IMG/VR virus record: IMGVR_UViG_3300028048_000056
Coordinates: 98,086-162,085 of that record
DNA: 64,000 bases
Reading direction: 5' to 3' (one strand)
Source: a virus
Lineage: Duplodnaviria > Caudoviricetes
The stretch's first letter is position 1, and every line of letters begins with the position of its first letter. A model generated the notes under the pieces. That model did not search any database, was not told where the DNA came from, and was given only the letters and a program-made list of their open reading frames with translations. Below are positions 1,872-50,244 of the stretch, piece after piece. The position numbers and the translations under genes are program-made.

Positions 1872-1932
1872 ATAAATACCTCCTGTTAAGTTATGGGCTC
1901 TTGTGACCCGTTGTTGTGTTTACTGTACCTAT

Positions 1933-1965
1933 ATTATAACATAACAACGGTACGAAAACGAAGTT
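1933..1965 (-). promoter_or_regulatory. phage promoter AACTTCG-N20-TATAAT
   Basis: conserved motif copy. Confidence 0.8.
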
Positions 1966-1977
1966 AATTGTAGGTAC

Positions 1978-2805
1978 TTATAGACGAATAGAATCTTGTA
2001 ATGAGCGCGCACGTGCTTCATAATTTCTCTGAAGTAATCTTCCATCATGGTAGGAGTTAGGAGACTCGCACACGATGACTGGATTAAAATCAGGGCGCTC
2101 AGGTAGGGACCTAAGGAATTGTGCAGGCTTAGGTCCCGCATCTCGAATCGAGAATGGCACGTGCTTCTTCTCACCCTTGTCAGTATACTCTAGCTTAGAA
2201 AAATGAATGTGCATACAGTTCACTTTCCATGCTGGTAATAACGCATAAAGCTGATTAAATACAGTCTCAAACTCTTCCTTGGTATTAAGGAACTTACCGA
2301 GTGTCCTGGCGTGCAGGTGTCCGAAATCGATACAAGGTATGAAATTATCAGTCAGATTGCACATACGACAGATATCCTCGATAGTACCTACCTGACTTAG
2401 CTTACCCAGATTTTCTATACAAATGAGAGAACTATCAAGAAGACCTGCATCTCTCATCTTAAACCAGAGTGACCACAGTGTCTTCCTCTGCACTTCCCAG
2501 ACTTCTTCAGGTGTACGTTCAGAATAATTCGCAGCGTGTACCACGATACGATTGGTAACGCCAGGCTGAATTTGTCGCATAATAGTTAGGTGTTTTATAA
2601 TTGTCTCGGTACTCATAAATCGAACACCAGGTTTCTTGCTTCCTATCGCAACCAGCATCGGTGAATGCATCGAAAGATAAATCCCGGTGTTTTCTTTAAG
2701 TTCACGGATTTTGGGAAGAACTGGTTCATCTAGGATTACTTCAGCTCCTTGTAATTTCCAACCTACAGTAGCATCTGTTGGATACCAATCAGCACTAAAT
2801 AGCAT
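1978..2805 (-). CDS. endonuclease IV-like (AP endonuclease family 2) TIM-barrel nuclease
   Basis: metal motifs SMHSP, IVVH, IENLGK, CIDFGHLHAR, HIHFS, GEKKH, IVCESP; start moved to ATG 2805 with GAGGG SD. Confidence 0.8.
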   Translation of the reverse strand: MLFSADWYPTDATVGWKLQGAEVILDEPVLPKIRELKENTGIYLSMHSPMLVAIGSKKPGVRFMSTETIIKHLTIMRQIQPGVTNRIVVHAANYSERTPEEVWEVQRKTLWSLWFKMRDAGLLDSSLICIENLGKLSQVGTIEDICRMCNLTDNFIPCIDFGHLHARTLGKFLNTKEEFETVFNQLYALLPAWKVNCMHIHFSKLEYTDKGEKKHVPFSIRDAGPKPAQFLRSLPERPDFNPVIVCESPNSYHDGRLLQRNYEARARSLQDSIRL

Positions 2806-2816
2806 GACTATAACCC

Positions 2817-3740
2817 TCAAGGTTCCGACTTAGCAACACCTCTAGGGAGGTCATGCTGTTCAAGGACATAGTGGCAGGTACGCGGTATTGTCAGACGAAC
2901 CTCAGGATTGTGCTGAGCGAGAAAACCTCGTCTTGTCCAGCATCTGGGACTCTTGGGGTAGAGCTTTTTCAGGTAACTGTCGAACCAAGCAGCATGACCC
3001 TCTTCAATCTTTCTACGCTCTTCAAGGTTATCGTAGATAAGACTTTTCTCACCCGCAGACTGACCGACTTCCTTACCGATGAGGAATCTATTGCGAATGC
3101 AGTGAAAACCTGCTTTAATCCAATCCAGTTGGAACATAGTATCCTCCGGCGGTTCATTCAGCTGAGCAGCAGTGTCTTTGTCGAAATATATTTCCTTACC
3201 TTGATATTTCTTGATGTTAGGTATGAACACCGCTTGTAGACTTCCATGGATTGGGTCTTTACCCATGAACCAGTGCGTCTCTCGCATAGGCCATTCATAA
3301 TTGGTTTTCTTGAACGGTTCATACATAGGTAGTATGCAGGAAATCATATAACCCTGCTTGCAGAGCTCAAGAACAGCCGGTGTGTTGAGGTCGTCGAACC
3401 AATCCTGATAACGATAATGGTCATAGAACACACGGTCATCATCAAGTAGGAAAAGCCAGTCATAATCTGAGTTGTAGAACTTCTCTAATAAGAAGTTTCG
3501 ATTTACCGCACAGGTGTGCTTATCAACCTCGATTGACTTCAGGTCAAGCGTAGTTCCGAGCTCAGCTTTTGCAGTTGGGCCCCAAGCACTCTCGACACGA
3601 TAGACCTCGAATGAGTCACGCACCTGCGTAGCGAGTCCTTCAAGCCAGCGTAACTGTTCTTGGTGAATGGGTATACGAAGTTTGCCACGGTCTGTTTCAG
3701 GCATATAGGAAATTATTCCTACCATGTAGTTTGCACTCAT
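2817..3740 (-). CDS. GT-A fold glycosyltransferase resembling DNA-base (TET/JBP-associated, GREB1-like) glycosyltransferases, paralog 1
   Basis: NRNFLL...DWLFLLDDDR and PPEDTMFQLDWIKAG; AGGAGG SD before ATG 3740. Confidence 0.65.
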   Translation of the reverse strand: MSANYMVGIISYMPETDRGKLRIPIHQEQLRWLEGLATQVRDSFEVYRVESAWGPTAKAELGTTLDLKSIEVDKHTCAVNRNFLLEKFYNSDYDWLFLLDDDRVFYDHYRYQDWFDDLNTPAVLELCKQGYMISCILPMYEPFKKTNYEWPMRETHWFMGKDPIHGSLQAVFIPNIKKYQGKEIYFDKDTAAQLNEPPEDTMFQLDWIKAGFHCIRNRFLIGKEVGQSAGEKSLIYDNLEERRKIEEGHAAWFDSYLKKLYPKSPRCWTRRGFLAQHNPEVRLTIPRTCHYVLEQHDLPRGVAKSEP

Positions 3741-3768
3741 GATATTACCTCCTTTATGGTTATATCCA

Positions 3769-3802
3769 ATTATAACATGAATGTGCGGTTGCATTCGAAG
3801 TT
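3769..3802 (-). promoter_or_regulatory. phage promoter AACTTCG-N21-TATAAT
   Basis: conserved motif copy directly upstream of glycosyltransferase 1. Confidence 0.8.
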
Positions 3803-3809
3803 CAGTCAC

Positions 3810-6266
3810 TCAGATGTTTGGATTTAGAACACCACTGGCAGCTGAAGTTCTATCAGAATAATAGGTCATGCGTCCTGTGCCAGAAGGTATCCAAGATGAC
3901 GGTGAATCGTAAATCCAACGAGCGTCAACTATACCAGCTGCATAATAGTTTTCATAGAACTGTCCGTCTTGAGGGCAACCCGTTTCACTATTATTACCGG
4001 TGGGTCCTCCACCAGCTATAATTCTCATCTTGTCGAAGTCGTCCATATCGGAAGTATATCCAGTCATCACTCCACCATACTTCAGCATATAATAGAAATT
4101 TTCTAATCCTTCTTGAGTGCCCTGGGTACGAACTGTATCTAATAAATCATGTTCATTATAGAATGTTCCGAACGACCAGGCACCGGTTTGCGGATTAAGC
4201 AACGCACGACCTTCTTCTGTCAGGTCATGAGAAAATCTGATGTAATAGCCAAGCATTAGATAGGTACGGAACATCCTAGCATACAACCAACTAACCGGAT
4301 TGTTACCATACTCTCGTATGCTTATTCCATACATAATACCTAAACCAACATTCTGACTTATATCAGCTAAGGCTGGTAATGTGCCCATGTAAAAATCTGA
4401 TAAATCTTTAGTAATATACTCAGGAAATGGTGTGTATCGATTATCTACCTGAACTCCTTCTGTATTAGTAATCTGGTCACATACCCACGCATAGATAGCC
4501 CTAGAAGCGTCAGGAAGATAATGCAAGTTATCACTGGTTAGCCAAGCAGCTCCCTTATCAAGTTCTAATTGCTTTATGTAAGCAGCTACGTCTAAGACAT
4601 GGATATTAGCTACACCAGACAATGCAGACTTTAGGTCTTCGTTGAACTGCTCAATTTCTTGGTTAAACGGACCTAAATCTTGACCAGAACCACCGTCGCA
4701 CTTACCACTACCGCTACCGTCAGGACAATGACCAACAGTACCTACAAACACCATTGCGTTATTGCCGACATTATTGGCAATCGACTTGTACACATTTGCA
4801 TAATTGCTAGCACCGGATTGTAATCCATTCACGCCCCACCAGAGGATTATGTTATGCTGAGTGCCTTCTGATTCTATTTCAGACTGCACTTCTATCAGTT
4901 TAGCTAACGCCTGACCTCCATAACCTCTACCGTCAGTGCCAGTAGCTGAAATCAGTTGAACTGTTCTAGAATCACCTGACCAGTACCAATCGGTAAATGG
5001 TGAATATATCTTACCGCTTGGAGTAGGAACAGGAGTAGGTCCTGAACCTGAATGCTTGAGATATATGCTAACCTCAGCTTGTGATATTGGAAGAGGGTCA
5101 TCAACCTGACCACGCTGAAATGATATAGGTTTCTGAGCAAAGAATATTTCGTCCAGATAGGGCTTACCATCAGGAGGATTACTGGCATAGAACAAACCTT
5201 GCATAGCAGTAGACTTTAGCTCTTCTATGTCACATAAGCTGTTAGGAGAGTCGTAGATAAACGACGAACCGACCTCGATGAATCCGATTGTATGAACGTT
5301 ACCTTGCATTAGGACTAAGGTGCTCATACGATAACACCAGATTGTCCTAATCTCGACAACCTGATTAACGGTTACATATGAATTTCTCAACTCTAACCTT
5401 AATATCTTACCAGATAAACCAGCTCGAGTAGTATCCTGTCTAAAGATTACTGCGGGACAATTCTCAATAATAATCCTGTCCGCTGTAATCTGATTTAGGT
5501 ACACAATCGAGGTGATGTCCCGCAACACCAGTATCTTAAATGTACCTGATAGACGAAGAATACCGCCGTAAAATCCTTGATACACCTTAGATTCACGTAG
5601 CATATCATTGATAGTTAGTGTACCTGTATGTGACTTTAACAGACTAGATATCAAAGATTGTGGCGGGTTTACCAATGTTTGCTCGCTTGTCGAACCAGAA
5701 AGTACATAATGAGAATCGTCATAGATAAGTCCTTCCTCATCTTTACCGATACTGACTAGATTAGGAATTACGCCGTTCAGGTTTAGAACATAATCAGAGC
5801 TCACTGAAATCCTATTGATAGCTTCTGTGTCTAGTTTTACTCGTTTTTTCAAGTCATCTAGCATATTCTCAATCTTCCCTTGCAATTCCTTGATGTATGC
5901 TAAAGACGGTACCCAGTATACAGCTACCGATGTTTTCTCGGTTAGTTCATCCGTATAACCACGCAGTATCATTTCATCAGCCTTTATTTCAACCTCTATC
6001 AAATCCTCTATATGCTTTAATTCAGATTCATCTTCCGAAAGAAATTCCAGATAGGGTATACGATTAGCCACCTCAGCAATCTGTAGATGATACTCATACC
6101 AGGTAGTATCTTCTAGAACTACTTCCTGAGCTTTATCTAGCATAAATACATCGGGATTATCATATCGATAAATTTCACCTAGATTTGTACCAGAATGTCG
6201 CAATATCCTATAGAAGTAAAGCACCTGCGTGTCTCGGTTAGACACTTGACCTAACTGATAAATCAT
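3810..6266 (-). CDS. putative virion protein (paralog family member 3) with appended SGNH/GDSL hydrolase and an unknown C-terminal domain
   Basis: N-terminus shared with the two upstream genes; PTPVPTP linker; SGNH blocks GDSRT, WGVNG, DNLHY. Confidence 0.65.
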   Translation of the reverse strand: MIYQLGQVSNRDTQVLYFYRILRHSGTNLGEIYRYDNPDVFMLDKAQEVVLEDTTWYEYHLQIAEVANRIPYLEFLSEDESELKHIEDLIEVEIKADEMILRGYTDELTEKTSVAVYWVPSLAYIKELQGKIENMLDDLKKRVKLDTEAINRISVSSDYVLNLNGVIPNLVSIGKDEEGLIYDDSHYVLSGSTSEQTLVNPPQSLISSLLKSHTGTLTINDMLRESKVYQGFYGGILRLSGTFKILVLRDITSIVYLNQITADRIIIENCPAVIFRQDTTRAGLSGKILRLELRNSYVTVNQVVEIRTIWCYRMSTLVLMQGNVHTIGFIEVGSSFIYDSPNSLCDIEELKSTAMQGLFYASNPPDGKPYLDEIFFAQKPISFQRGQVDDPLPISQAEVSIYLKHSGSGPTPVPTPSGKIYSPFTDWYWSGDSRTVQLISATGTDGRGYGGQALAKLIEVQSEIESEGTQHNIILWWGVNGLQSGASNYANVYKSIANNVGNNAMVFVGTVGHCPDGSGSGKCDGGSGQDLGPFNQEIEQFNEDLKSALSGVANIHVLDVAAYIKQLELDKGAAWLTSDNLHYLPDASRAIYAWVCDQITNTEGVQVDNRYTPFPEYITKDLSDFYMGTLPALADISQNVGLGIMYGISIREYGNNPVSWLYARMFRTYLMLGYYIRFSHDLTEEGRALLNPQTGAWSFGTFYNEHDLLDTVRTQGTQEGLENFYYMLKYGGVMTGYTSDMDDFDKMRIIAGGGPTGNNSETGCPQDGQFYENYYAAGIVDARWIYDSPSSWIPSGTGRMTYYSDRTSAASGVLNPNI

Positions 6267-7525
6267 CTGTTATCACCTCCTGATGTGATGTAGTTAGCAA
6301 CCCATTTAGAAACGTACATACCCGGCTGAGGTTCTGCATCACAATTACCTAATCTCGGTGTTAGATTTTTCTGACCTACAATCATTATATTATCAAAATC
6401 AGAAACGAAAGCACCTATGATATTATGCACATTGAAGTCAAAGACTGTATTAGAATTATCCTGATACTCGCTAAGTTGTACTCTACCAGGTACAGCTACC
6501 TGAGCACAACACCAATAGGTACACCCCGGTCCTACATAAGCTAAATCCTGAACATTCGATCTCCAGTGTCTGCACAGACTGTTCGCTTCCATTACTAATT
6601 CTTTGATAACATGAACATGGTTTTCAAGATAAACCGTACTGCCCTTGCTAATCTGCAACTTGCTAAGTCTGCAAATGTAGATTGGGTCTGTAGCAGTTAG
6701 ATGCACTTCCGGACAATCGATTACGGTAATAGTACCTATCCAATTCGTTACCAAGACCTGCCCTCTCAGATTTTTGAGTACCAAATCACCGCTACCCGAA
6801 ATAAGAATAACCGGTGCTAGGAATCCATCTAGGATATAATGGTCTTGATTGATAAAACGGAACTCTACTGACTGATTAAATATTCTTTCCATATGATTTA
6901 GATTGTCCTGCGATAGGTTAACGAACAGTCTATCACTGTCAGCGGTCATTACTCGGTATAGCGAGTCTACCAAGTCAGAGCCGGAATTATCATTCTGGAT
7001 TTTAATCAGATTTGGAATTAAACCGACAGGTCGTCTTAGGTATTTACCGGTATCTTTGAAATTCCTAATCTCATCTTCTAGCTTATCAAAATCTTTAGCT
7101 ATCTTACTCAAATCAGACAGTATATCTGTCAGCAAAGAATCGATATGTCTAAGTGAATAACACCAATATACCTGAATAGGCAACGTTTCTAGATAATTAG
7201 TAGCACTATATAGAATTATGGAAGAGTTGTCAACTTCAACATCTATAAAATCAGCAATCCACTTCCAATCTGTGCCAGCCTCCGGATGGAATTCTAGGAA
7301 AGGTACACCACCATCCTCAGGAGTTATACCGTCCAGGCGAGCTGCGTAGACTGTATCGTATCCCTCGATTTCGCGAGTGCTCAACTCCCAAGATAAGGTA
7401 GTTGCTTCTTGCTTATCACCGCCTCGGCATATTGCACTTAGATTATCAGAAGGTTCTCTAAGAATGCGGTATTCGTAGAGTAGCTGTATATTTCTATTGG
7501 TTACTGAACCAATGTCATAGAACAT
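6263..7525 (-). CDS. putative virion protein (paralog family member 2)
   Basis: NRxxxLLYxYRILR N-terminus; beta-strand-rich C-terminal half. Confidence 0.6.
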   Translation of the reverse strand: MFYDIGSVTNRNIQLLYEYRILREPSDNLSAICRGGDKQEATTLSWELSTREIEGYDTVYAARLDGITPEDGGVPFLEFHPEAGTDWKWIADFIDVEVDNSSIILYSATNYLETLPIQVYWCYSLRHIDSLLTDILSDLSKIAKDFDKLEDEIRNFKDTGKYLRRPVGLIPNLIKIQNDNSGSDLVDSLYRVMTADSDRLFVNLSQDNLNHMERIFNQSVEFRFINQDHYILDGFLAPVILISGSGDLVLKNLRGQVLVTNWIGTITVIDCPEVHLTATDPIYICRLSKLQISKGSTVYLENHVHVIKELVMEANSLCRHWRSNVQDLAYVGPGCTYWCCAQVAVPGRVQLSEYQDNSNTVFDFNVHNIIGAFVSDFDNIMIVGQKNLTPRLGNCDAEPQPGMYVSKWVANYITSGGDNR

Positions 7526-8755
7526 TTAATCACCACCTTGACGTATGTGTATATTATCAACATCAAATTCTAACAGACGTGACGGCATCAACTCAGCATC
7601 ATGTTCTCCGCTAACCTCGTCGATACGTCTACCAGCTACATATAAAGCAGTACTCTCACCTACAAGACTACACCACCAAGCTGTGCCAAGTATATGCGCA
7701 GGATTTATCGGAATAGGTTTATCCCAGCTGTAGAAGTAGCAACCGTGACCTATCAGCGTGACGTGCTTGATATTCAAACCGGTATATGTTAAGCTAGCCA
7801 CAGTCGGTACCACGATTAGTGTAGTACCACCTACGATACAGACATCGTCTACCGAACATTGATTGAGTACGACCAATGACCTGTGTGCGTGTAGATAATC
7901 ACATTGATATCCAGAACGAATAGAAACGGAATTGTCGACAGTCGTACGAAAATGCACCAGCCGACAATTCCAAAGATAAACCTTACCCGTACCGGTAACA
8001 AAGTTAATACCACTGTCTACGTCACGGATTACCCAGTTACCATTACCTTTGATATTGATAGAGAATCCTGAGAACGATTCTAGGTAGCGAGTACCGCCGT
8101 CAGTAATCGATATATTTATGCTATGCTTTAACTTTCTAGGCAATGACATTAGCAGCTCCTGACTTGGGTCTACCAGAAGTTGTGCGTCTAAAGCTGATGT
8201 TATCATATAGTCAGAATCTTGCATAGTCACTCCAGAAGTACTGTCAGCAAATTGAATTATGTTCTGGTCTCTACCAGAAATGGCAGCAATACCTTTCGGC
8301 TGATTCTTTCGGTCGTTAAACGCTTTTCGCAGTTTTTCTACGTCGAGTTCGTCTAGGGCTTCTAGATAAGCATCGATTGCCTTTCGGATGCTGTCTAAAG
8401 AACTAACCCAGTATACCCTAACTTGAACTGGTTCTGTAAATGTAGCTGACTTACCATAGATTGTAGCATCATTCAGATACAACAATGTTTCTAGGTGTTT
8501 TCTATCAGCTTCATTCTTGGTATCAAATTCTAGATATGGTATGTATCCGTCACGTATTTCTACGTCTAAGTTAAATGCGTATACCGGGTAGCCATCGTCA
8601 GTTTCCAGCTCTGTAGTCACGCCCTCGAATATTTCGGTGACTTCGGGCTCACCTGCATCGTAGATAGCTGACAAGAAGTCCGATGGCTGTCGCAATATTC
8701 TGTAATAATGCAGTAAGGACAGGTCTCGATTACTAATCTCATTCATCTGATACAT
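7526..8755 (-). CDS. putative virion protein (paralog family member 1)
   Basis: start moved to MYQMNEISNRDLSLLHYYRILR by alignment with its paralogs. Confidence 0.6.
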   Translation of the reverse strand: MYQMNEISNRDLSLLHYYRILRQPSDFLSAIYDAGEPEVTEIFEGVTTELETDDGYPVYAFNLDVEIRDGYIPYLEFDTKNEADRKHLETLLYLNDATIYGKSATFTEPVQVRVYWVSSLDSIRKAIDAYLEALDELDVEKLRKAFNDRKNQPKGIAAISGRDQNIIQFADSTSGVTMQDSDYMITSALDAQLLVDPSQELLMSLPRKLKHSINISITDGGTRYLESFSGFSINIKGNGNWVIRDVDSGINFVTGTGKVYLWNCRLVHFRTTVDNSVSIRSGYQCDYLHAHRSLVVLNQCSVDDVCIVGGTTLIVVPTVASLTYTGLNIKHVTLIGHGCYFYSWDKPIPINPAHILGTAWWCSLVGESTALYVAGRRIDEVSGEHDAELMPSRLLEFDVDNIHIRQGGD

Positions 8756-10703
8756 TCTCATTGTCCTCCGGATTCTCATCCTCGATAGGTTCATCTTCAC
8801 CGTCATATTCAGGCTGCGGTCCCTGTTCTGTTGAACTTGCAGCGTCTGACGCGTCTTCCTCGATTACCTGAGTATCATGTCTATATACTTCTGCATACAG
8901 GATTTCTTCATCTGTCTGCTCTGCATGTAGTCTTAAGAATGCTTGTCTGTTCTCTTCAAAGAATGACACATCTCCGTCTGAAGTCGCATAAGACTTTTGT
9001 TCGTCTTCCCAGGCCTGAGCTAGATTATGATACTGGAATAGGAAAGTGCCTGAACCCTTAGCAAGTGGCTCATCAAATGGGACACCTATACTGGTACCTG
9101 CTGGTACCGCGATTACGCGAATGTGTGTATCTTTATTTATTGTTATACTATTGCTGTACCGCAATGCGTTAGCTGCTAACGCATACACCACGGTATCGTT
9201 GTTGTTTGTATATTGATACGGTGATGAACCATCAACGGTATAATATAGGTCTGCGTTGTCTGCGTCGGTGGTAATCGTGATAATCTGTTCACGTTCACTC
9301 AACAATTCATTACCTGTTGGTATTACACCAGGTACCGGTGAAAAATAGATACGTTTCGGTGGTATTACATCAACTGTAACCTTGATTACTTCGGTGTACT
9401 CGCCACCGCCACCACCTCCTCCGCCACCGGAAGTAGGCATGGGCATAAGAACTTTGTCGCAGTCTAGGTCACCATTATAACCAGAAACTCGACCTACCCA
9501 GCTATGCTGAAATATATAAACCTTAGTGTAGGTAGATTCTGGCAGATAACTTTCTAAGGTAGCACGAGTAGCACTTTCAAACGGAAAATCGACATAAGCA
9601 GCCCAGATTGGTTTGTCACCAATAGATGATGCGGGATATATCGTGAAGGTTCCTGCAGAACTGTAGACACCTGCAAGAGGATAATCTGCGTTATCGAACA
9701 CATTCATGAAACGCTCGACAAACGCATAATTGATATTAGTATCAGCAGATGGTGTGGGGTCTCGACTGCCACCCTGTTCGGTGTCAATCCACACTCCCAT
9801 ATTAACCTTATCTTTTGTAGCACCAATTGTCTGAAGATAAGCTAAAGCGTCCTCGAAAGCTGAGGTCATATCGTTCTCATAATTCGCATAGTTATAGAAA
9901 TAGATACCCAGACCCAATCCTGCATCGAGTACCCGCTGTACTGCTTCCGCTGGATTAAAACTCGACGCAGCCTCAAAACCAGAATTTCGGATAGCACCAA
10001 CCTGGATAATCACACCACCACTACCACTGTTAGCAATAGCATCGATACAGGTATTCAGGCTACCATTAACCACCTGTGCCCATGATATATCATAACACTC
10101 AGTCTGTGGGAAAAACGGCTCACTCGGAGTATCACCACCCGGTGGTCCATAATCAGTAGCAGTTTTATCCAGCGGTATATAATCCCAATTATTACCGTTG
10201 TCAACGGCATCTGGAAAATTCCAACCTGTAGGTAGCGTTGCAGAGTCAAAAGCTAAAATCGGGTCACCTATACGACTACCGCCCTGCCGAACATCATAAT
10301 GCAGATGAGCACCTTGTGAATCACCGGTATTGCCGATGAGTCCCACCGTATCTCCTTGCTTAACTTCATCACCTACCGATACGGGAAGTGAGTTCTCGAC
10401 CAGGTGCATAAAGTAATGAGTTCGTCCATTTCCCTCATCGATAGCTACCGAAGTACCCATACCGTCGTTCCAGCCTGTCTGGTTAGCAACGATTACTGTA
10501 CCGAACACTGGCGTTCTGGCAGGTACCGTTAATGCAGTGCCAGTACCCATATCCCAGGCATCTAGATGATGATGGCTGGTAGGTCTTGCATAATGACCAT
10601 CACTGTCTACCAATGCTAATTGGAAAAATCTAGGAAGACTCATCTGATTACCTGAAGTGTCTCTTAATACTACTTGACCTGAAGTATTGTATTCATTTCC
10701 CAT
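8739..10703 (-). CDS. multidomain peptidoglycan hydrolase: M23 peptidase + GH25 muramidase-like + Fn3/CHB_HEX_C-like domain
   Basis: HLDAWD and GNTGDSQGAHLHY (M23); YDISWAQ, WIDTEQ, IWAAY, FQHSW, DLDCD (GH25); LYYTVDGSSP. Confidence 0.8.
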   Translation of the reverse strand: MGNEYNTSGQVVLRDTSGNQMSLPRFFQLALVDSDGHYARPTSHHHLDAWDMGTGTALTVPARTPVFGTVIVANQTGWNDGMGTSVAIDEGNGRTHYFMHLVENSLPVSVGDEVKQGDTVGLIGNTGDSQGAHLHYDVRQGGSRIGDPILAFDSATLPTGWNFPDAVDNGNNWDYIPLDKTATDYGPPGGDTPSEPFFPQTECYDISWAQVVNGSLNTCIDAIANSGSGGVIIQVGAIRNSGFEAASSFNPAEAVQRVLDAGLGLGIYFYNYANYENDMTSAFEDALAYLQTIGATKDKVNMGVWIDTEQGGSRDPTPSADTNINYAFVERFMNVFDNADYPLAGVYSSAGTFTIYPASSIGDKPIWAAYVDFPFESATRATLESYLPESTYTKVYIFQHSWVGRVSGYNGDLDCDKVLMPMPTSGGGGGGGGGEYTEVIKVTVDVIPPKRIYFSPVPGVIPTGNELLSEREQIITITTDADNADLYYTVDGSSPYQYTNNNDTVVYALAANALRYSNSITINKDTHIRVIAVPAGTSIGVPFDEPLAKGSGTFLFQYHNLAQAWEDEQKSYATSDGDVSFFEENRQAFLRLHAEQTDEEILYAEVYRHDTQVIEEDASDAASSTEQGPQPEYDGEDEPIEDENPEDNENVSDE

Positions 10704-10706
10704 CAA

Positions 10707-11990
10707 TCACTCCTCCATTCCTTGTATCCAGTTTGAGTAATCACTCTTGTCATAGGTTGTGTCCTCATCATGTAAGAACAGAAATCCTCGAGCATCTTCT
10801 GCTTCTGGAATATTACCGGACGCGTCTCGCATGAAGGTAGCGTGCCTTGCTGCTAGAAGTAGCATTGTAGCTTTCGCATCGCTACCGTCATTAGCAGAAT
10901 TGGTAAAGTAAGCAGATGACCTACCCCAATCTTGACTATGAGTAGCAACATCTGTTATCACGCATCGGAAATGCACAGGAAACTGCGTCCTGATAGTCGG
11001 TACATAGTCTTTAGAGCGTTCATAGTCATTAGTACCATCAGCATTTAGGAACAGAGTTCGGCCATGAAGTAACGGGTCAGAATTATTTAAGGTGAACATC
11101 ATTACGATACCCTCTTTAATTGCCTGCTGCCACTCTGCATCAGTTTCACTATTGGTGTATCTATATGTGTAGAATGGTATGAACTCTAACCAGGAATCTG
11201 AAAATCGGTCAGTCGCCACTCTACCTGATTCATCTACTACCAATTCAGCAGTACGGAAATAACCGGGAATCACACTATTAAACTCACCATTCTGCTTCCT
11301 AATCTGATACTGGAACTCTAACTTCTGAACAAATTTGAGTTCTATATCAAGAGACTCCAATGATTGAGACTTATTCTCAGTTGCTTCCGATGCTGTGATA
11401 GAGTCACCATTACCCTTGACATATCGCAAAACCTTAGCTGCCTCAGTATCTTGAATTGTCCATGTAGCCGCTAAATCAGCCGGGTCGCTGTCTTGCAAGT
11501 ATTTCGTACCAGCTGCACATGATTTGGGAATCGCTTGACCACCAGTATTAGGACCACTCCCAGCATTTAACCCATACGCATTACCGTTCAGATAATCTAC
11601 AAAAATATCGCAATGGCTATGAGAACCAGAAGCTCTTATGTCACCGGGGTGAACATCTGAAGCATCGAATGGTAGAACTGCCCAGTCTGGTGATATATTA
11701 CCATTCGCGTCTTTTACGAAATTACTGGTAGCATCTGTCAGATACCAACCGTCACCTGTATGACCGGCTACCGACGACACACCCCAATTCGGGTCATAAC
11801 CCATCACACGAATAATGCACTGAATTACTCCAGTACAGTCACAACGGCATTGATACGAAGAACCGTCTATATCCAGAGTAACTGATATTTCGGAACCATA
11901 GCTACCTGATGGGTGAGCCACACCTAGAGCTGCGTATACCTTAGCAGCTGCGGTTAAGAAAGTTGACTCAGCCGCATCCCAAGCTTCCAT
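10707..11990 (-). CDS. virion protein with N-terminal NlpC/P60-CHAP-like Cys-His amidase/peptidase domain
   Basis: CDCTGVI...PGDI...HCDIFV. Confidence 0.6.
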   Translation of the reverse strand: MEAWDAAESTFLTAAAKVYAALGVAHPSGSYGSEISVTLDIDGSSYQCRCDCTGVIQCIIRVMGYDPNWGVSSVAGHTGDGWYLTDATSNFVKDANGNISPDWAVLPFDASDVHPGDIRASGSHSHCDIFVDYLNGNAYGLNAGSGPNTGGQAIPKSCAAGTKYLQDSDPADLAATWTIQDTEAAKVLRYVKGNGDSITASEATENKSQSLESLDIELKFVQKLEFQYQIRKQNGEFNSVIPGYFRTAELVVDESGRVATDRFSDSWLEFIPFYTYRYTNSETDAEWQQAIKEGIVMMFTLNNSDPLLHGRTLFLNADGTNDYERSKDYVPTIRTQFPVHFRCVITDVATHSQDWGRSSAYFTNSANDGSDAKATMLLLAARHATFMRDASGNIPEAEDARGFLFLHDEDTTYDKSDYSNWIQGMEE

Positions 11991-12645
11991 TGTACCACCC
12001 CTTATCTACCGTATAATAACCGGCAACACCACTCATAATCATCTCCTCACGATGTCGGTCGAAAATTTCCTCTACCCGCATTATGCTACGAGTTTTATTC
12101 TCGACATCATCTCGGAGTAAGAACAGCTGCATTCGGTTAAGATTTCCTTTCCAATTACGTTTGCGAACATTTTTATCAGTGGTCTTAGTCAATATCGCTC
12201 GCTCGACGTTTGCACCAGATACCTCGATGAAATAGATACCCCAGTCTCCGTCTTGATTGTGGTAATACAATCTAAGACCGCTGAACACTCTCTCACGGAT
12301 AATCTGCTTGTAAAGTTCCTCTCGCTCTATTGTAAGGAGCCTTAAGGATTCGATGCAATGCTCGGTATTTTCCAGTAGATACAATGACTCTATAACCTTG
12401 ATATAACGATTAAGGATACGAGTACCTCTATCCCAGTCTTTCACGTCATCAGGAAGAAAGAGACGGTTCACTTCAAGTTGTGTGCCAGATTCATCATCAC
12501 GTAGAATGAACCCGTCATAGAACTTGCAGCCCATCTCTTTCAACTCTCTATATTCAGGAATTCGATTTCCTATCTCGAACAGCCTGTTACGTCTTTCGAT
12601 AATATCTTGCATATAAAAGAAGCTTGGTATTTCCATCACAATCAC
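11968..12645 (-). CDS. hypothetical protein
   Basis: 225 aa ORF overlapping both neighbours. Confidence 0.6.
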   Translation of the reverse strand: MIVMEIPSFFYMQDIIERRNRLFEIGNRIPEYRELKEMGCKFYDGFILRDDESGTQLEVNRLFLPDDVKDWDRGTRILNRYIKVIESLYLLENTEHCIESLRLLTIEREELYKQIIRERVFSGLRLYYHNQDGDWGIYFIEVSGANVERAILTKTTDKNVRKRNWKGNLNRMQLFLLRDDVENKTRSIMRVEEIFDRHREEMIMSGVAGYYTVDKGWYNGSLGCG

Positions 12646-13082
12646 GCTCCAATTCGTCTAGGCATCCTTCCGCTTTCAACGATACAAAGCATCCTGAGAA
12701 ATCGTATTAGATACCAGAACGTGTGGAGATAACTGCGAGCATCAGTTTCAGGATGTGTTCTGGTTGCTGTGATGTCTCTCCGAATTATATCATGCAGCTT
12801 CTTCTTTAACTCTGGGTCCTGACTTTCGTCTGCTGTAACCAGCTCGTTAATCCAGGATTTTGGAAGATTATCAAGAATGAAGAACGCATCAGAACAATAG
12901 GTCGAAATTGTTCTTCTCTTTACACCTGGCTTAATCTGCTCCATAAACGAAAAGAATGCTGTGCGTATACATTCAACCTGATACAGGTCATTTTTTATCA
13001 ACAATACTGTCCCATTCATCCTGCCAAGGCACCTCCCTGCGAAGAAAAAGTCTAGTAGGGTCGAATGTGTTTCTGCGAGCAT
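12642..13082 (-). CDS. hypothetical protein (true start possibly ATG 13019)
   Basis: ORF fills the gap in the operon. Confidence 0.55.
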   Translation of the reverse strand: MLAETHSTLLDFFFAGRCLGRMNGTVLLIKNDLYQVECIRTAFFSFMEQIKPGVKRRTISTYCSDAFFILDNLPKSWINELVTADESQDPELKKKLHDIIRRDITATRTHPETDARSYLHTFWYLIRFLRMLCIVESGRMPRRIGA

Positions 13083-13896
13083 TAAGCTCTTTCTTTGTCC
13101 AGAGTGCTTTGTTTCGAGGGTTCTTACTCTTGAGATATTCTGTTATCCAGCCTTTGTGGTATTCCTCAGCCTCTCTGCGGTGAGCTTTACTTTCATAGAT
13201 TGAGCTCTGATTATCACCGCCGAATTCTTTCATAACCAGATTCTTGTTCATAGCGAGTCCGTGCTTAGCAAGAACCCAATCCAGCTCGAACTGCACATCT
13301 TCAGGAGGAGAACCAGGTAAACAGCTTGTTTCACCATTCATATAAACTGGCTCATAGCCGTACTTGACTAGATTAGGAATACACGCAATCTGAAGAAATC
13401 CTGAAGGAGTGCTCTTTGACAAGAACCACGCTTCATGCCGTTTCGGAAACTCTACACACTGTTTCTTAAAAGGTTCCGTCATAGGAGTCAGAGCTTTAAT
13501 AATCGTACCGGCAGCTGCCAGTCTATCTCCATCAGGTCCTTTGAGTTCTTTCGTGAAAAATTCCTCGCCGTTGAAATATGGGTACAGCGCCCGGTCATCG
13601 TCCATAATGACTAACCAGTCATAATCTGACTCATACAGCTCCTTTAATAGATAATTTCGATTTGCACCAGGATATGCTGCCGGTACTGGCATACTGGTTA
13701 TCTCGAAAGGTACATCGTAAAGACAGTCATAGTCAGAATCATCTCCCCACGCACTCTCGACACGGTAATATAAATCATCTGGCGTTAGGAAGGTAGACAA
13801 CCAATCCAGCTGCTTTCTGTGATTTATAATTCGCTGAGCCTTTCGCTTACCGTCAGGCGGAATAAAACTTATCGTACCATACATTACCTTACCCAT
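12988..13896 (-). CDS. GT-A fold glycosyltransferase, paralog 2
   Basis: YRVESAWG, ANRNYLL...DWLVIMDDDR, PPEDVQFELDW; clear paralog of 2817..3740; AGGAGG SD before ATG 13896. Confidence 0.65.
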   Translation of the reverse strand: MGKVMYGTISFIPPDGKRKAQRIINHRKQLDWLSTFLTPDDLYYRVESAWGDDSDYDCLYDVPFEITSMPVPAAYPGANRNYLLKELYESDYDWLVIMDDDRALYPYFNGEEFFTKELKGPDGDRLAAAGTIIKALTPMTEPFKKQCVEFPKRHEAWFLSKSTPSGFLQIACIPNLVKYGYEPVYMNGETSCLPGSPPEDVQFELDWVLAKHGLAMNKNLVMKEFGGDNQSSIYESKAHRREAEEYHKGWITEYLKSKNPRNKALWTKKELNARRNTFDPTRLFLRREVPWQDEWDSIVDKK

Positions 13897-13932
13897 AATT
13901 AACCTCCTTAGTGTCGGTATTTTCGTAATATT

Positions 13933-13966
13933 ATTATATAACACCACACGAGTCAGAAACGAACTT
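13933..13966 (-). promoter_or_regulatory. phage promoter AAGTTCG-N21-TATAAT
   Basis: variant copy upstream of glycosyltransferase 2. Confidence 0.7.
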
Positions 13967-14486
13967 ATGTGGTGTTATCCAAGATATTCTTAATTTCGTC
14001 ATATCTATCATACGACGTGAGTGGCTCATAATCTAAATCCCACAACCCTTTCGTCTTTTCCAAGAACCGTGGGTCATTAAAGTCTGTGACATATTCGCGA
14101 GTTTTCTGGTCAACCCACATTACGCTACCGAACAGATGAAGCCGATACTCACGTAGAAACCCTCCCAGCCACTCTACGGGAAGATTGGCTCTCAGGTAGA
14201 GTTGAAATTTTATTCTTACCTGAGGTGGTATCGGTCGTGCGTATGCTAAATCTTTCTTACGAATTACATTGCAGCAGGCTTCATAAGCCGGCATGGTATC
14301 TGCAGTTATTCTGTAGAATGACTCGTTGATTAGGAGTATTCCTTGCACATACATACCTACATAGGTCATCAGGCTTGCATACTCCGCTTGCTGATTTCTT
14401 GGCAGCTCGAGTGCGTCTTGATAATCATGTGGTTTAGCCTTAATAACACCTAATACTTTGGCAGCTTGATACTCGATAGGCGACAT
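13965..14486 (-). CDS. hypothetical protein
   Basis: 173 aa ORF with GAGGTG SD. Confidence 0.65.
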   Translation of the reverse strand: MSPIEYQAAKVLGVIKAKPHDYQDALELPRNQQAEYASLMTYVGMYVQGILLINESFYRITADTMPAYEACCNVIRKKDLAYARPIPPQVRIKFQLYLRANLPVEWLGGFLREYRLHLFGSVMWVDQKTREYVTDFNDPRFLEKTKGLWDLDYEPLTSYDRYDEIKNILDNTT

Positions 14487-14501
14487 GACACATCACCTCT
14501 C

Positions 14502-18666: not shown

Positions 18667-18709
18667 TATGATACTACAAAATGCGTGTAGCATCGGTATA
18701 TGACGTCAC

Positions 18710-18743
18710 AAGTTCGATGTTGTGTCGGTCCTTATGTTATACT
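18710..18743 (+). promoter_or_regulatory. phage promoter variant AAGTTCG-N21-TATACT
   Basis: variant copy; argues that the downstream gene starts at 18843. Confidence 0.65.
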
Positions 18744-18842
18744 TGTGATACTGTAGAAAGTATGTCACATGATTTCCCGTGTTATACTTTATATGTGAGT
18801 TTAACGTGTTCGTCACACGTCGTCAGAAAGAGGGTCTACATT

Positions 18843-20426
18843 ATGTGTCAGAGGGTTTTACCTAGAACTTCTTTCGAAGAGCGTCTTCCAGAGGGTTGGT
18901 TTTTGTCACGTCTCTATAAAGGAAACCGCATATTATATTATAATGATGTGAGGGTAGCAAGTCTCGCTGACAGTTTTGATATTGAAGCTGAAGTGACTGA
19001 GATAATCAACAATCCACCAGAAGTCGTTCAAGCTGTATTATACCAAGATGGTAAAGTATCAGCAACCGAGTTAAGTTCTAATGTTCAAAAGAAGTTAGTT
19101 AAGAAGGGTCTTATCCCTTACGAATTTGCTCTCAACTGCCTCCACAGCATAGAGAGCTGGTTATATAAGATAGTTCCTGCTAGGGCAGAGTATAACGGTA
19201 AATTCTATGTTAATAGACGTAATCGTTGGTATGATGAAGCAGGCAATTGTATCAACACGACATTCCTGTTCTTGTCTACATGGGATGCCAGAGTGCGATA
19301 TGCACAAGGAAAATGCACATTGGCTGATGTAGCCAGATACAGCTGGTCAGCTGTTCTAGAGTGTCTAGGTGATGACCACCAAAGGTTTATAAATCAGGTA
19401 CTTAAACCTAAGATGGAATTAAACCGTAAGGGCTGGGTCCTCGACGCGAAAGCAACTAAAGCTAAGAAGCTGAAGCAAAATGAGCCATGGGAGCATACTG
19501 AATTTGATTGTGCAGAGGAAATTGAAGAAGAGTACAGAGAAGATGTGAATTCTTGTTTATATCGGTATTTCTTTAGCTCGCAGAGCAATCATGTTCAGAT
19601 GTTTACCGAGGAGTGTAACCTACCAGCGTTCAAGGACATAAAAGCTCAGACAGAGGCTTATGAGAAGGATGTTCTTGCACAACTCAAGAGCATCGAGCCT
19701 CAGCTCTGTAGGTTTAAGTGGAATGCTCTATTAAAATCGCATGAACCGGTATTTGCACCTCAGATGATGTCTGCTGAAAAATGGGACGATTTCTGTGATT
19801 TGGTTCACCAGGTAGTTATCGGACAGATGAGCGGACATGAAGCTGCGTTGCACCTTGTTCACGGTGATTGGTCAAAAATCAAACGAGAAAGCAATCGGTA
19901 CGAAAAGCACATGACACAGCACGTACCGTTTTATAGTGAACGCTGGCAGAAATTGGATGCTACAAAAACCTCATTTATAGAAGCAGTTGACTACGTTCAG
20001 TCGAATATTCGTGACCTTATTACTATGGGTTACAGAGATGTCAGTAAGATAATCGTGTCATTTACATATGATGATTGCCGCTTCGCATTAAATGTAGTGA
20101 CGGGTGAGGTTAGGTACATCGGCTACTCTAATGGAAAGTTCATGTCAGATACGTGGCTTAAACTTAAACCAGAGGAGAGAAGAAAATTACTCCATGATGA
20201 TGCAGAATGGGAATATCAAGAGAAAGCGATTAAGAAGTATCGACGACTATTCTCATATCTGTATAATGTAGTCCACAAGCATTGGGACAGGGCGTGCTAC
20301 TTTGTACAGGACAGGTTGCTCGCTAAACGCAAGTATCTACGTCCTTCTTCTGGATTCCTTGATAGGATGAAAGAGAAGGCAGATAAATATATCAAATCTT
20401 TAGAAAGAAGGGTTGCAATTTGCTGA
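18843..20426 (+). CDS. large hypothetical protein, translationally coupled to dpdA
   Basis: long ORF; GAAAGAGG SD before ATG 18843; no recognisable motif. Confidence 0.7.
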   Translation: MCQRVLPRTSFEERLPEGWFLSRLYKGNRILYYNDVRVASLADSFDIEAEVTEIINNPPEVVQAVLYQDGKVSATELSSNVQKKLVKKGLIPYEFALNCLHSIESWLYKIVPARAEYNGKFYVNRRNRWYDEAGNCINTTFLFLSTWDARVRYAQGKCTLADVARYSWSAVLECLGDDHQRFINQVLKPKMELNRKGWVLDAKATKAKKLKQNEPWEHTEFDCAEEIEEEYREDVNSCLYRYFFSSQSNHVQMFTEECNLPAFKDIKAQTEAYEKDVLAQLKSIEPQLCRFKWNALLKSHEPVFAPQMMSAEKWDDFCDLVHQVVIGQMSGHEAALHLVHGDWSKIKRESNRYEKHMTQHVPFYSERWQKLDATKTSFIEAVDYVQSNIRDLITMGYRDVSKIIVSFTYDDCRFALNVVTGEVRYIGYSNGKFMSDTWLKLKPEERRKLLHDDAEWEYQEKAIKKYRRLFSYLYNVVHKHWDRACYFVQDRLLAKRKYLRPSSGFLDRMKEKADKYIKSLERRVAIC

Positions 20427-21421
20427 ATACACAGCTTTACTTTGCTGGTAGTGCACCGCAGGAAGTCGACGAGTTTCTCGTCAAGAAGGGTTACAACCGA
20501 CTCTTCTCGCAGCTGAATGACCGTTCACGTATTAAGCGTTGGATGGGTTACAAAGATGAACACCCTGACATGAAGCTGTTCGTTGACTCTGGTGCGTTCT
20601 CAGCATACACCAAGGGAAAAGAAATCGACCTCGATGACTATATCGCTTACCTGAATGCGAACGGTAGCTACTTCAATGTCATGGTTCAGGTAGACTACAT
20701 TCCTGGTAAGTCAAATGTCGTTCAAGACAGGCAGGTTTATCTCGATGCGCCTAGAATATCTTGGGAGAACTTCCTTCATATGAGAGAGCGCCTGGATAAA
20801 AGTCTGTGGGATAGATTTATTCCGGTTTTCCATGAAGGTGAGGATTTCAAGTGGCTTGAGAATATGCTGAACTATCGAGATGCTGATGGTAATCCGCTTG
20901 CCTATATTGGTATTTCACCTCATACAGAAACAACTACAGACAGACGTCTTGTATTCTGTAAGGAAGTGTTCCGTCGTATCAAGCGACTCAATCCACAGGT
21001 TAAGACGCACGGATTCGGTATGACTGCACTGAACATTCTGCAGTATATCGATTTTACATCGGTTGACTCTACGACATGGCTGAAAGGTGCAATCTATGGC
21101 ACAATTCTCGTTCACCGACACAACAAACTTGCCGCCATGAACGTAGGTGAAAGAACTACAGGTGCTTCCGACCACTTCTGCTGGCTGGGTGCTGATGCCA
21201 AGGATGAGGTTTGCCGACTAATCGAGGACGCAGGATTCTCTACTGAGAAACTCCGAAAGATTGACCCGACTCGAGAGAATGACATTCCTGACGATGGCGA
21301 ACCAGATATCACCAACAGCATTGCTATGCGTCAGATGTTCAATGCTGCCAGCATGATTCGTTATCTCGAGACTACAGATTTCCTGGGCTTACCTAAGTCG
21401 GCTCGTCGAATTGGTCTCTGA
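20420..21421 (+). CDS. dpdA: TGT-fold 7-deazaguanine transglycosylase, DpdA-like (DNA-directed by inference)
   Basis: LFVDSGAFS, QVDYIPG, IPVFH, YIGI, KTHGFG, SVDSTTW; lacks the CxCxxC Zn site of bacterial tRNA TGT; adjacent to the replisome. Confidence 0.8.
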   Translation: MLNTQLYFAGSAPQEVDEFLVKKGYNRLFSQLNDRSRIKRWMGYKDEHPDMKLFVDSGAFSAYTKGKEIDLDDYIAYLNANGSYFNVMVQVDYIPGKSNVVQDRQVYLDAPRISWENFLHMRERLDKSLWDRFIPVFHEGEDFKWLENMLNYRDADGNPLAYIGISPHTETTTDRRLVFCKEVFRRIKRLNPQVKTHGFGMTALNILQYIDFTSVDSTTWLKGAIYGTILVHRHNKLAAMNVGERTTGASDHFCWLGADAKDEVCRLIEDAGFSTEKLRKIDPTRENDIPDDGEPDITNSIAMRQMFNAASMIRYLETTDFLGLPKSARRIGL

Positions 21422-44972: not shown

Positions 44973-45875
44973 ATGAAGTCAAAGATTCAGAAAGAAGAGT
45001 CATGGGGCAAAGCTCCTGGGCTGTTCGCTGTGCTAATGGCTATCAACGTCGCAAGCTACGCTCTGTGCGTACCGATGATGGTTAAGATTCTGGAAGCAAA
45101 GGAAACCAGTATCTTTTCTATTCTGGGTATGCTGATTTTCACAGTGTGCGGTATGCTGCTGGCGGGTAAGTTGTCGGCAAAAGTGAACAAGGTGGTTGCT
45201 TATGCGTGCGGTGCTCTTCTAAGTGCAGCGGGAATCGTCTTGTGCGCGCTTGATGCAGTAGATGTTCTGTATATACCGGGACCTACGGTTATGGCAACTG
45301 CAACAGGTGATTCTCTATTTTTTATCGCAACTTACATCGTCTCTGATGTATTCTCAGAAGTGTTCGGTTACAGAGCATCAAGACTGTCTGGCAACACTTC
45401 GGCTATTTTTGCTGTTGTAGCAGCTTTAATCGCGAAAGCGTTTACCGGTATACCCGTGCCTGAGTATGCAGAAGCGAATGAATCCGCATTTGATTTCATC
45501 TACGGTGGTGGTATTTATGTTACCATTGTCGGCATCTTGATTTACGCCGTAGGTGATTTCCTCAATGATAAGCTATTTGCTTATATTAAGAAAAAGAAAC
45601 CCGGTGAAGGTTTTTCAAGCTACTCACTCCGTTCAATCGGTTCGAGTATCTTAGGTAAGACTGCTGATTTGGGTCTATTCACACTCCTGGTAATGATACC
45701 GTTCTCAATCCCGAGCTTCTGCTCAGTTCTAGGAATGGACTGCTGGGGTATGGATGCAAAGAGTATAGCAGGCAACTTCTTGCTTGGTATTGCATTCCAG
45801 ATTACGGTGGAGGCATTGCTGTCACCTGTATCTTATAAAATTGCAACTGGCGTTAAGAAGAGCCTAGAATCATAA
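44973..45875 (+). CDS. yhhQ: queuosine precursor transporter (YhhQ/QPTR family) with extra N-terminal TM helices
   Basis: multi-TM; FFIATYIVSDVFSEVFGYRASR, GDFLND.LF, RSIGSSILG. Confidence 0.75.
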   Translation: MKSKIQKEESWGKAPGLFAVLMAINVASYALCVPMMVKILEAKETSIFSILGMLIFTVCGMLLAGKLSAKVNKVVAYACGALLSAAGIVLCALDAVDVLYIPGPTVMATATGDSLFFIATYIVSDVFSEVFGYRASRLSGNTSAIFAVVAALIAKAFTGIPVPEYAEANESAFDFIYGGGIYVTIVGILIYAVGDFLNDKLFAYIKKKKPGEGFSSYSLRSIGSSILGKTADLGLFTLLVMIPFSIPSFCSVLGMDCWGMDAKSIAGNFLLGIAFQITVEALLSPVSYKIATGVKKSLES

Positions 45876-45896
45876 TACATGAAAGGACGATTTATC

Positions 45897-47140: not shown

Positions 47141-47650
47141 ATGGAAGGCAGAAACAAAGAAGAACTTGCAGGCGTTAGCTTGCTCGGTAACCAGAATACC
47201 AAATATAAGTACGACTACGACCCGTCTGTGCTGGAAACATTCGTGAACAAGCATCCTGAAAACGATTATGTCGTTACCTTTGATGCGTATGAATTCACTT
47301 CGCTCTGCCCTAAGACCGGTCAGCCTGACCTCGCAAAGATTATCATCAGCTATATACCGGCGGAGCAGATGGTGGAGTCCAAGTCACTCAAACTCTACCT
47401 GTTCAGCTTCCGCAATCACGGAGACTTCCATGAGGATTGTGTCAATATCATCATGAAGGACCTGGTTAAGGTGATGCAGCCGAAATACCTTGAGGTACGT
47501 GGTATCTTTGCACCTAGAGGTGGTATTGCAATCTTCCCGTTCTCCACATACGTTAGCCTTGACCACCCTGAGTTCAAAGACCTTGAAACTCAGAGACGTC
47601 TGGCAGTTCTCCAGTCCGCAGCTGAAAGGAAGGTGACATATGATGCCTAA
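47141..47650 (+). CDS. queF: NADPH-dependent preQ0 reductase QueF (type I)
   Basis: [13 protein letters not shown], QueF motif [26 protein letters not shown]. Confidence 0.95.
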
Positions 47651-48338: not shown

Positions 48339-48341
48339 ATT

Positions 48342-50242: not shown

Positions 50243-50244
50243 TA

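Follow-up and report, generated by a model that had tools for sequence, protein, structure and literature searches.

A virus-only glycosyltransferase family linked to dpdA in gut phages and its possible role in 7-deazaguanine DNA modification

Hypermodified bases in phage DNA are a driving force in the arms race between phages and host defences (restriction, CRISPR, and glycosylases), and tools for epigenetic sequencing have been derived from them. To our knowledge, the sugars found on such bases are carried by modified pyrimidines (5-hydroxymethylcytosine (hmC), 5-hydroxy-C, and base J) and not by 7-deazaguanines. The closest described enzymes belong to the TAGT family (PF20691). Two papers of 2026 (PMC13216743 for one) identify the beta-glucosyl-HMC-alpha-glucosyltransferase of T2 and T6 as a member of this family, which adds a second glucose to glucosyl-hmC in DNA. 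Here, we analyzed a 64,000-nt stretch of phage DNA (the window), which forms the last 64 kb of the 162,085-bp IMG/VR record IMGVR_UViG_3300028048_000056 (93% complete) and encodes two paralogous glycosyltransferases, GT1 and GT2, along with the DNA guanine transglycosylase DpdA and the queuosine enzyme QueA. The family that includes GT1 and GT2 is recurrently and physically linked to dpdA across other phages. We put it at about an even chance that the family is an optional add-on to DpdA 7-deazaguanine DNA-modification modules, that is, that its members are DNA glycosyltransferases tied to this modification.

The TAGT enzymes resemble GT1 and GT2 in that they are phage-encoded GT-A proteins of about 270-320 aa with RN, DxD, and ED motifs, and the similarity in sequence is weak but significant. 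The T6 enzyme acts after replication and transfers a sugar onto an existing sugar, which makes it a model for the sequential action of paralogs. In contrast to the TAGT systems, the phage studied here has no detectable TET/JBP or hmC pathway, and a pyrimidine hydroxylase or hydroxymethylase is replaced by DpdA as the genomic partner of its glycosyltransferases. The alpha- and beta-glucosyltransferases of T4 have the GT-B fold, use hmC as the acceptor, and are not homologous to GT1 and GT2. They provide a functional analogy, being a phage enzyme pair that sugar-coats a modified base after replication as a counter-defence (PMC13216743). With regard to the modified base, the described phage DpdA systems (dPreQ0, dPreQ1, dADG, dG+, and the 2023 additions) share with the window phage both the DpdA subfamily and the preQ0/preQ1 genes. 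Neither Hutinet 2019 nor, as far as a term search of its text goes, Cui 2023 describes a glycosyltransferase partner for these systems; the same search of Cui 2023 gave no mention of QueA or of glycosylation, and Hutinet 2019 reported no QueA, QueG, or QueH in any virus analyzed. Full-text literature searches likewise found neither a 7-deazaguanine reported to be glycosylated in DNA nor a glycosyltransferase linked to DpdA. In animal tRNA, both hydroxyls of the cyclopentene ring of queuosine (Q) can carry a hexose (galQ and manQ, PMC12518689), although the substrate there is tRNA and not DNA, and the two are likened here by chemistry only.

The two glycosyltransferase genes are located on the minus strand of the window, at the positions given for them in an earlier note that had been made on this DNA from the sequence alone. 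The gene names GT1 and GT2 refer to these paralogs throughout and are unrelated to the term "GT2-type," which refers to a glycosyltransferase family.

2817..3740, minus strand: GT1, 307 aa, GT-A fold glycosyltransferase with a DxD motif (D100-D102) and a putative catalytic ED (E199-D200)
12988..13896, minus strand: GT2, 302 aa, paralog of GT1

Both open reading frames (ORFs) begin at an ATG behind a strong AAGGAGG-type ribosome-binding site. The paralogy claimed in the earlier note is confirmed by BLASTP, which aligned GT1 and GT2 with 102 of 277 residues identical (37%, E 4e-57), and each of the motifs it had listed (YRVESAWG, NRN.LL, DW...DDDR, EPFKK, and PPED..F.LDW) is contained in both proteins. 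A family tree places them in the same orthogroup, which is one of four in clade A.

An AlphaFold (AF2) model built on 23 homologs (pLDDT 91.4) revealed a single Rossmann-like alpha/beta/alpha nucleotide-sugar-binding domain, as in the GT-A superfamily. Foldseek matched the model to GT-A enzymes at E values down to 1.5e-7 (AvpGT, K4CP, PcManGT, RmlT, TarP, TarS, and WrtF), and VIA-align superimposed it on many GT2-type and GalNAc-T enzymes with Z scores of about 14 (rmsd 3.4-4.8 A over 205-244 residues), none of which stands out. Among these, TarS, TarP, and RmlT, which act on wall teichoic acid, and AvpGT, which acts on a nucleoside, have the same GT-A core (VIA Z 13.3-14.2, Foldseek E 1e-7 to 1e-5) but are set apart by an identity of only 9-16%, by the lack of a PF00535 match above threshold, and by their genomic context. 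Residues R81, D100-D101-D102, N175, K178, and E199-D200 are invariant across the 23 homologs, N82 is invariant or nearly so, and D100 is also invariant among 72 diverse members of the family. In the model, the DDD lies directly after the strand formed by residues 95-100, which is the DxD position typical of GT-A enzymes, and the ED opens the helix formed by residues 199-209. E199-D200 is found about 100 residues past the DxD, a spacing like that of the xED motif of inverting GT2-type enzymes; from this comparison, which is one of spacing only, we infer that E199-D200 is the putative equivalent of the catalytic base. We are nearly certain that GT1 and GT2 are GT-A glycosyltransferases, and they are probably metal-dependent (DxD).

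Assignment of the two proteins to a described family was less direct. Neither GT1 nor GT2 matches any Pfam or NCBIfam model, and neither was matched at E values up to 1 by PF00535 (Glycos_transf_2) or by PF20691. Among the 72 diverse family members, PF00535 gave weak matches in 12 (best E 0.0011) and PF20691 gave matches in four (best 6.9e-6); in addition, one dpdA-adjacent member has a precomputed PF20691 match. In the PHROGs collection, GT1 matches phrog_842, "beta-glucosyl-HMC-alpha-glucosyltransferase," at 1e-6, and GT1 and GT2 both match phrog_2456, "glycosyltransferase," weakly. Several structural neighbors in the BFVD viral structure library are labeled TAGT, one of them being the T-even enzyme, and the three nearest clusters in the ESM Atlas (TM 0.64-0.78) are 100% viral with no Pfam family, followed by GT2-type family clusters at a TM of about 0.6. 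An exhaustive profile search collected 490 cluster representatives (50% identity) at E values up to 1e-3, 71 of them at E values up to 1e-30, and all are viral where the taxonomy is known. A pattern scan of 185,579 prokaryote species genomes found no relatives, a search of the family sequence profile against PDB chains gave no match at E values up to 10, and a further homolog search with a broader alignment returned only families that had already been seen. The few weak PF00535 and PF20691 matches among the 72 members suggest that the family is an uncurated, virus-only branch of the GT-A enzymes for which TAGT is the nearest neighbor, with the kinship being at the level of the superfamily and not one of TAGT membership. 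The description of GT1 and GT2 as glycosyltransferases of the DNA-base type, put forward in the earlier note, can therefore be kept insofar as it refers to a GT-A fold and a distant TAGT kinship, while a PF20691 match to GT1 and GT2 themselves was not obtained.

An indication of what the family may do comes from its gene context in other phages. We assembled a DpdA-centred sample consisting of the 80 best IMG/VR DpdA loci and searched those 47 records that are at least 30 kb long and do not belong to the window lineage. The glycosyltransferase (GT) family was found in five of the 47 records, and in all five the GT gene is within about 2 kb of dpdA. Four gene orders are represented, as listed here with a related contig from ENA (NDT, nucleoside-2-deoxyribosyltransferase; SDR, short-chain dehydrogenase).

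G001 (~60 kb type): PolA, GT, DpdA, SGNH, YhhQ
G056 and ENA L044 (50-53 kb phages): PolA, GT, DpdA, YhhQ, NDT-like, GT
G036 (175 kb): DpdA, GT, QueC-like ... QueE, FolE
G041 (164 kb): YhhQ, NDT-like, DpdA, SDR, GT-like, CofD-like
G014: GT at the end of the contig, DpdA at its start

The ~60-kb phages, which are represented by four complete IMG/VR genomes, ENA contigs, and contigs from human and animal gut, carry the GT gene between the PolA gene and dpdA, with the SGNH hydrolase gene and yhhQ coming after dpdA. A GT gene directly followed by dpdA was also found in all 12 of the further metagenome loci that have enough flanking sequence. A sister ~60-kb phage, G055, has the arrangement of G001 without the GT gene, which indicates that the GT is an optional layer on a working DpdA module. 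Within clade B, which is the larger one, the dpdA-adjacent members are spread over five or more subclades, and the phages that carry both genes come from animal and human gut samples. For the clade-B members P0165 and P0153, no close relatives were found in IMG/VR, and a search with P0165 against INPHARED returned no more than two distant "glycosyltransferase" genes (23-25% identity), the surroundings of which are unrelated. The variety of gene orders, together with the pair of phages with and without the GT, argues for selection on the linkage between GT and dpdA. The link to 7-deazaguanine DNA modification that the earlier note had drawn within the window is thus stronger than proposed there, since the family lies directly beside dpdA in several other phage lineages.

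Other genes of these DpdA modules are worth recording. The NDT-like gene (PF05014) adjoins the YhhQ-type transporter gene (L134 11732-12211; L109 9355-9843; L044 9505-9999) and, among the 80 sampled DpdA loci, is present only where the GT is present. This pairing suggests the salvage of an imported nucleoside or nucleotide. An SDR gene is found ~0.9-1.8 kb downstream of dpdA in many DpdA phages without the GT (L074-L078, L084, L089, L128, and L136), is 37-44% identical to the SDR gene of G041, and may be a marker of another, undescribed elaboration of deazaguanine. In G041, a gene for a 567-aa CofD-like protein (2-phospho-L-lactate transferase family; L109 12513-14216) directly follows the GT-like gene.

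In the window, the genes for the modified base are arranged in two units on the plus strand.

18681..20426, plus strand: o581, 581 aa, without a family match
20420..21421, plus strand: dpdA (DNA guanine transglycosylase), phrog_887 at 4.9e-46
44973..45875, plus strand: YhhQ/Vut_1-type queuosine-precursor transporter
45879..47138, plus strand: QueA, 419 aa, 364.9 bits against an NCBIfam equivalog cut-off of 324
47141..50823, plus strand: queF, queC, queD, queE, and folE, which lead from GTP to preQ1

The nearest isolated relative of the window DpdA is the DpdA of Streptococcus phage Dp-1, with 37% identity over 98% of the length, and Dp-1 DNA is known to carry dPreQ1 (Hutinet 2019). The window DpdA has no match to PF01702, and no PF01702-type tRNA guanine transglycosylase (TGT) is encoded in the phage genome. 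Because o581 overlaps the start of dpdA and is retained upstream of it throughout the lineage, it is a candidate DpdA partner. We had also considered that the que genes serve tRNAs encoded by the phage. This idea was dropped, as a GUN anticodon is missing from all six tRNA genes of the phage (Leu x3, Pro, Gln, and Ile; G000:C1 13354-23201, outside the window) and a PF01702-type TGT is not encoded. Two features of the que block were noted in passing. The 397-aa QueD (48342-49535, plus strand) has its PTPS/QueD domain limited to residues 215-308. A weak match to HNH nucleases (YajD and IscB) covers residues 136-208, and this stretch may be a fused or inserted segment resembling an HNH homing endonuclease. 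Following folE, a phosphoribosyltransferase (PRTase) gene (50977-51960, plus strand) encodes an N-terminal extension of ~130 residues, and a small PRTase-like ORF is also present in the DpdA-GT-que cluster of G036 (L103 13010-13420).

The statement in the earlier note that the window contains no TET oxygenase or hydroxymethylase was extended to the whole 162-kb record. No ThyA-type enzyme or other Thymidylat_synt match was found, and there was no Tet_JBP match in a search that had no positive control and in a record from which ~7% of the genome may be missing; a full-length ThyX is encoded at G000 24720-25340, outside the window. With ThyX present and neither a ThyA-like hydroxymethylase nor a Tet_JBP match, hydroxymethylpyrimidine acceptors are unlikely. 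The whole-genome search also returned no QueG and no QueH, and the product would therefore be expected to keep the epoxide of oQ in its ring, unless it is reduced by an enzyme of the host. A UDP-sugar pyrophosphorylase (UDPGP) gene was not found in the record either, again by a search without a positive control.

Comparison with related genomes showed that QueA, DpdA, GT1, and GT2 are kept together within the lineage, being present in all seven IMG/VR relatives (111-167 kb) and in the window phage (8/8 genomes). Co-occurrence with queA had been named in the earlier note as a test that could refute its interpretation, and the outcome is divided, with 8/8 in the window lineage and 0/5 among the other genomes that have both GT and DpdA. 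In the 147-151 kb relatives, the gene order is o173, GT2, GT1, o146, o225, with the GT paralogs in tandem upstream of the M23 block and adjoining genes for a 5'-3' exonuclease and an SNF2 helicase. In the window sub-lineage, GT1 has moved 9 kb away to a position before an AP_endonuc_2-type gene, such that GT1 and GT2 flank a block with an M23 peptidase carrying Fn3_assoc/CHB_HEX_C_1 domains. The tandem paralogs of the relatives imply that this bracketing is a recent rearrangement, and a functional arrangement in which the GT genes bracket a tail or wall-hydrolase cluster was dropped from consideration.

Family relatives carry from one to four GT paralogs, and those of clade A carry two to four. 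Related T4-like phages on two Logan contigs of 34 and 45 kb (L042/L146 and L147) have four paralogs, one per clade-A orthogroup, and in L042 a UDPGP gene (PF01704) directly follows the four GT genes. This placement supports NDP-sugar chemistry and glycosylation in several steps. The extended contigs of the four-GT phages (L146, L149, and L174) contain replication and structural genes and no dpdA or que genes, but they end where dpdA lies in the window, which makes this absence uninformative.

Based on these findings, a pathway can be proposed for the window lineage. By homology, FolE, QueD, QueE, QueC, and QueF would make preQ1, and DpdA, judging from its relative in Dp-1, would exchange guanine in the phage DNA for preQ1. 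QueA could then act on the aminomethyl side chain, turning it into the epoxy-dihydroxy-cyclopentyl group that characterizes an oQ-type base. After replication, GT1 and GT2 would glycosylate this side chain with NDP-sugars of the host, either at the two hydroxyls or sequentially as sugar on sugar, and the product would be a bulky adduct in the major groove that blocks host nucleases. The steps of this proposal differ in how probable we consider them. That GT1 and GT2 act on phage DNA is somewhat favored, and that their acceptor is the base inserted by DpdA is an evenly balanced proposition. More tentative is the assignment of the acceptor specifically to the QueA-made diol, which fits the window lineage in that QueA is always present, no other hydroxylated-base pathway was found, and both Q hydroxyls are sugared in animal tRNA. 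The complete scheme, in which the window lineage writes a glycosylated queuosine-type base with preQ1 inserted by DpdA, the ring built on DNA by QueA, and one or two sugars added by GT1 and GT2, is possible but doubtful to a similar degree. The suggestion in the earlier note that two enzymes are present for the two ring hydroxyls is conceivable in the window lineage, but it is one option among several, which include sugar-on-sugar transfer as by the T6 TAGT enzyme, and relatives carry one to four paralogs.

Several observations weigh against the involvement of GT1 and GT2 in such a pathway. The GT genes lie at distances of 6.5 kb and 16.7 kb from dpdA and of about 31-42 kb from queA, and a general promoter type is all that they have in common with the dpdA and que genes. 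We know of no activity of QueA on DNA, the enzyme being known on tRNA only. The structural matches to glycosyltransferases that act on teichoic acid, glycans, and proteins are just as good. Outside the window lineage, QueA and QueF are present in 0/5 GT+DpdA genomes. The clade-B enzymes of these phages are only 25-34% identical to GT1 and GT2 and could have a different acceptor. A related replication module (30-40% identity) is common to the phages with both GT and dpdA, and for this reason the GT+dpdA lineages cannot be counted as wholly independent of one another. The nearest relatives in clade A, which have two to four GTs, are on contigs that end short of the dpdA/queA region, and the window phage itself is known from metagenomes alone. 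Finally, no dQ was detected in any phage tested by Hutinet 2019.

The absence of QueA from the other GT+DpdA phages means that the QueA-made diol cannot be the general acceptor of the family and is an option for the window lineage only. Of the 47 DpdA records, just one was found to have QueA; it is 51% complete and distantly related to the window lineage. By BLASTP, the 60-kb GT phages share no que gene with the window. It could be that the GTs do glycosylate the base inserted by DpdA but do so independently of QueA. The acceptor would then be the nitrogen of the dPreQ1 aminomethyl group, an amide or carboxyl derivative, or a queuine-type base obtained by salvage, with QueA having a separate role or providing one of several routes to an acceptor. 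The five GT+DpdA genomes, lacking QueA and QueF, speak for this explanation, as does the fact that a GT may be present or absent between otherwise equivalent modules. So does the pairing in these modules of a YhhQ-type importer with an SGNH hydrolase or an NDT-like protein, which suggests the salvage of an imported precursor, in phages of the animal and human gut. We nevertheless regard it as unlikely, since a hydroxyl is missing from both preQ0 and preQ1, it would be unusual for a GT-A enzyme to N-glycosylate a primary amine, and QueA has been kept with both GTs in every genome of the window lineage. We can speculate that clade B uses a salvaged queuine-type base, with which the importer and nucleoside-processing genes would fit. 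Salvaged queuine provides the same diol acceptor, and at that point the explanation merges with glycosylation of a queuosine-type base as proposed for the window lineage.

A second group of explanations places the target off the DNA or on other bases. The GTs could act on host envelope polymers (wall teichoic acid, as does the prophage enzyme TarP), on virion proteins, or on a small molecule or nucleoside (as does AvpGT), serving superinfection exclusion, virion decoration, or detoxification. TarS, TarP, RmlT, WrtF, AvpGT, and GalNAc-transferases match the model as well as any enzyme, both proteins have an acidic pI (6.1 for GT1 and 5.7 for GT2), distant superfamily members are found in glycan-building clusters such as that of phage DSL-LC06, and the GT genes of the window sub-lineage flank the M23-peptidase block. 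This flanking is not conserved, the relatives having their tandem GTs by the exonuclease and helicase genes, and elsewhere the family lies inside replication modules directly adjoining dpdA. Moreover, relatives were absent from the scanned prokaryote genomes, and no signal peptide or membrane segment is apparent in the AF2 model. The gene neighborhoods in particular disfavor targets other than DNA, which we consider improbable, on a par with an acceptor independent of QueA. Glycosylation of hydroxymethyl- or hydroxy-pyrimidines in DNA, as by the TAGT enzymes of T-even and TET phages, would agree with the phrog_842 match of GT1, the TAGT matches in the family, and the TAGT structural neighbors. 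Against these stand the 93%-complete genome with a normal ThyX, no ThyA-type hydroxymethylase, and no Tet_JBP match within the limits of that search given above, as well as the GT-bearing 60-kb phages, which share no hydroxymethylase with the window. We consider a pyrimidine acceptor very improbable.

According to the earlier note, the promoter motif upstream of the GT genes also precedes the dpdA unit and the que operon. AACTTCG-N19-22-TATAMT has 10 exact copies in the window against 0 expected in shuffles, and the copies that belong to the GT genes are as follows.

3769..3802, minus strand: exact promoter motif, AACTTCG-N20-TATAAT, upstream of GT1
about 13933..13966, minus strand: promoter motif with one mismatch, AAGTTCG-N21-TATAAT, upstream of GT2

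The que block is preceded by an exact copy at 44697-44730 and the o581-dpdA unit by a copy with one mismatch, AAATTCG-N21-TATAAT, before 18681. Each of the four units has a copy of the motif, exact or with one mismatch. As the motif is also found before many unrelated genes, it provides no specific tie of the GTs to dpdA or que and, going by its distribution, looks like a general phage promoter class and not a modification regulon.

The immediate neighbors of the GT genes in the window are all on the minus strand.

13965..14486, minus strand: o173, 173 aa, directly upstream of the GT gene or genes in all relatives, including distant ones (26-39% identity)
12642..13082, minus strand: o146, about 125 aa in relatives, where it is directly downstream of the GT gene or genes
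1978..2820, minus strand: AP_endonuc_2/xylose-isomerase-like TIM-barrel protein, the start of which overlaps the GT1 stop; the adjacency is confined to the window sub-lineage

A protein-atlas look-up with o173 gave no usable match. For the TIM-barrel protein (1978-2820), CbiR, a cobamide-remodelling phosphodiesterase, scores better than nfo (8.4e-8 and 4.4e-4, respectively), and both are far below the cut-offs. In the region 3810-8806 (minus strand), an 818-aa protein is ~26-30% identical to the products of two ORFs just upstream (420 and 426 aa), and the three form a tandem paralog array adjoining the M23 peptidase gene.

With respect to the source of the phage, the record has a full-length match to DNA in a bovine-gut metagenome run and partial matches in manure, faeces, and pig-gut runs; no RNA run is among the sequencing runs listed as containing the phage DNA. 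Among INPHARED phages, positions 1-20000 of the window have no nucleotide match and GT1 has no tblastn match.

Overall, the interpretation in the earlier note is partly supported, and three elements are added to it. One is a testable, uncurated enzyme family of 490 representatives, and another is a recurrent dpdA-GT gene pair in phages of the animal and human gut. The third is a lineage that adds QueA, the enzyme reported absent from the viruses analyzed in Hutinet 2019. Together they may point to the post-replicative sugar decoration of a hypermodified phage base, with a new partner pathway and uncurated enzymes. If true, the base would be the first purine analogue of a genome known to carry sugar, and QueA would have its first role outside tRNA, which would extend natural DNA chemistry and give QueA a DNA substrate. 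It would also explain why importers and nucleoside-processing genes replace biosynthetic ones in some DpdA phages. The virus-only family of "DpdA-associated glycosyltransferases" would then represent a new tier of 7-deazaguanine hypermodification across gut phages.

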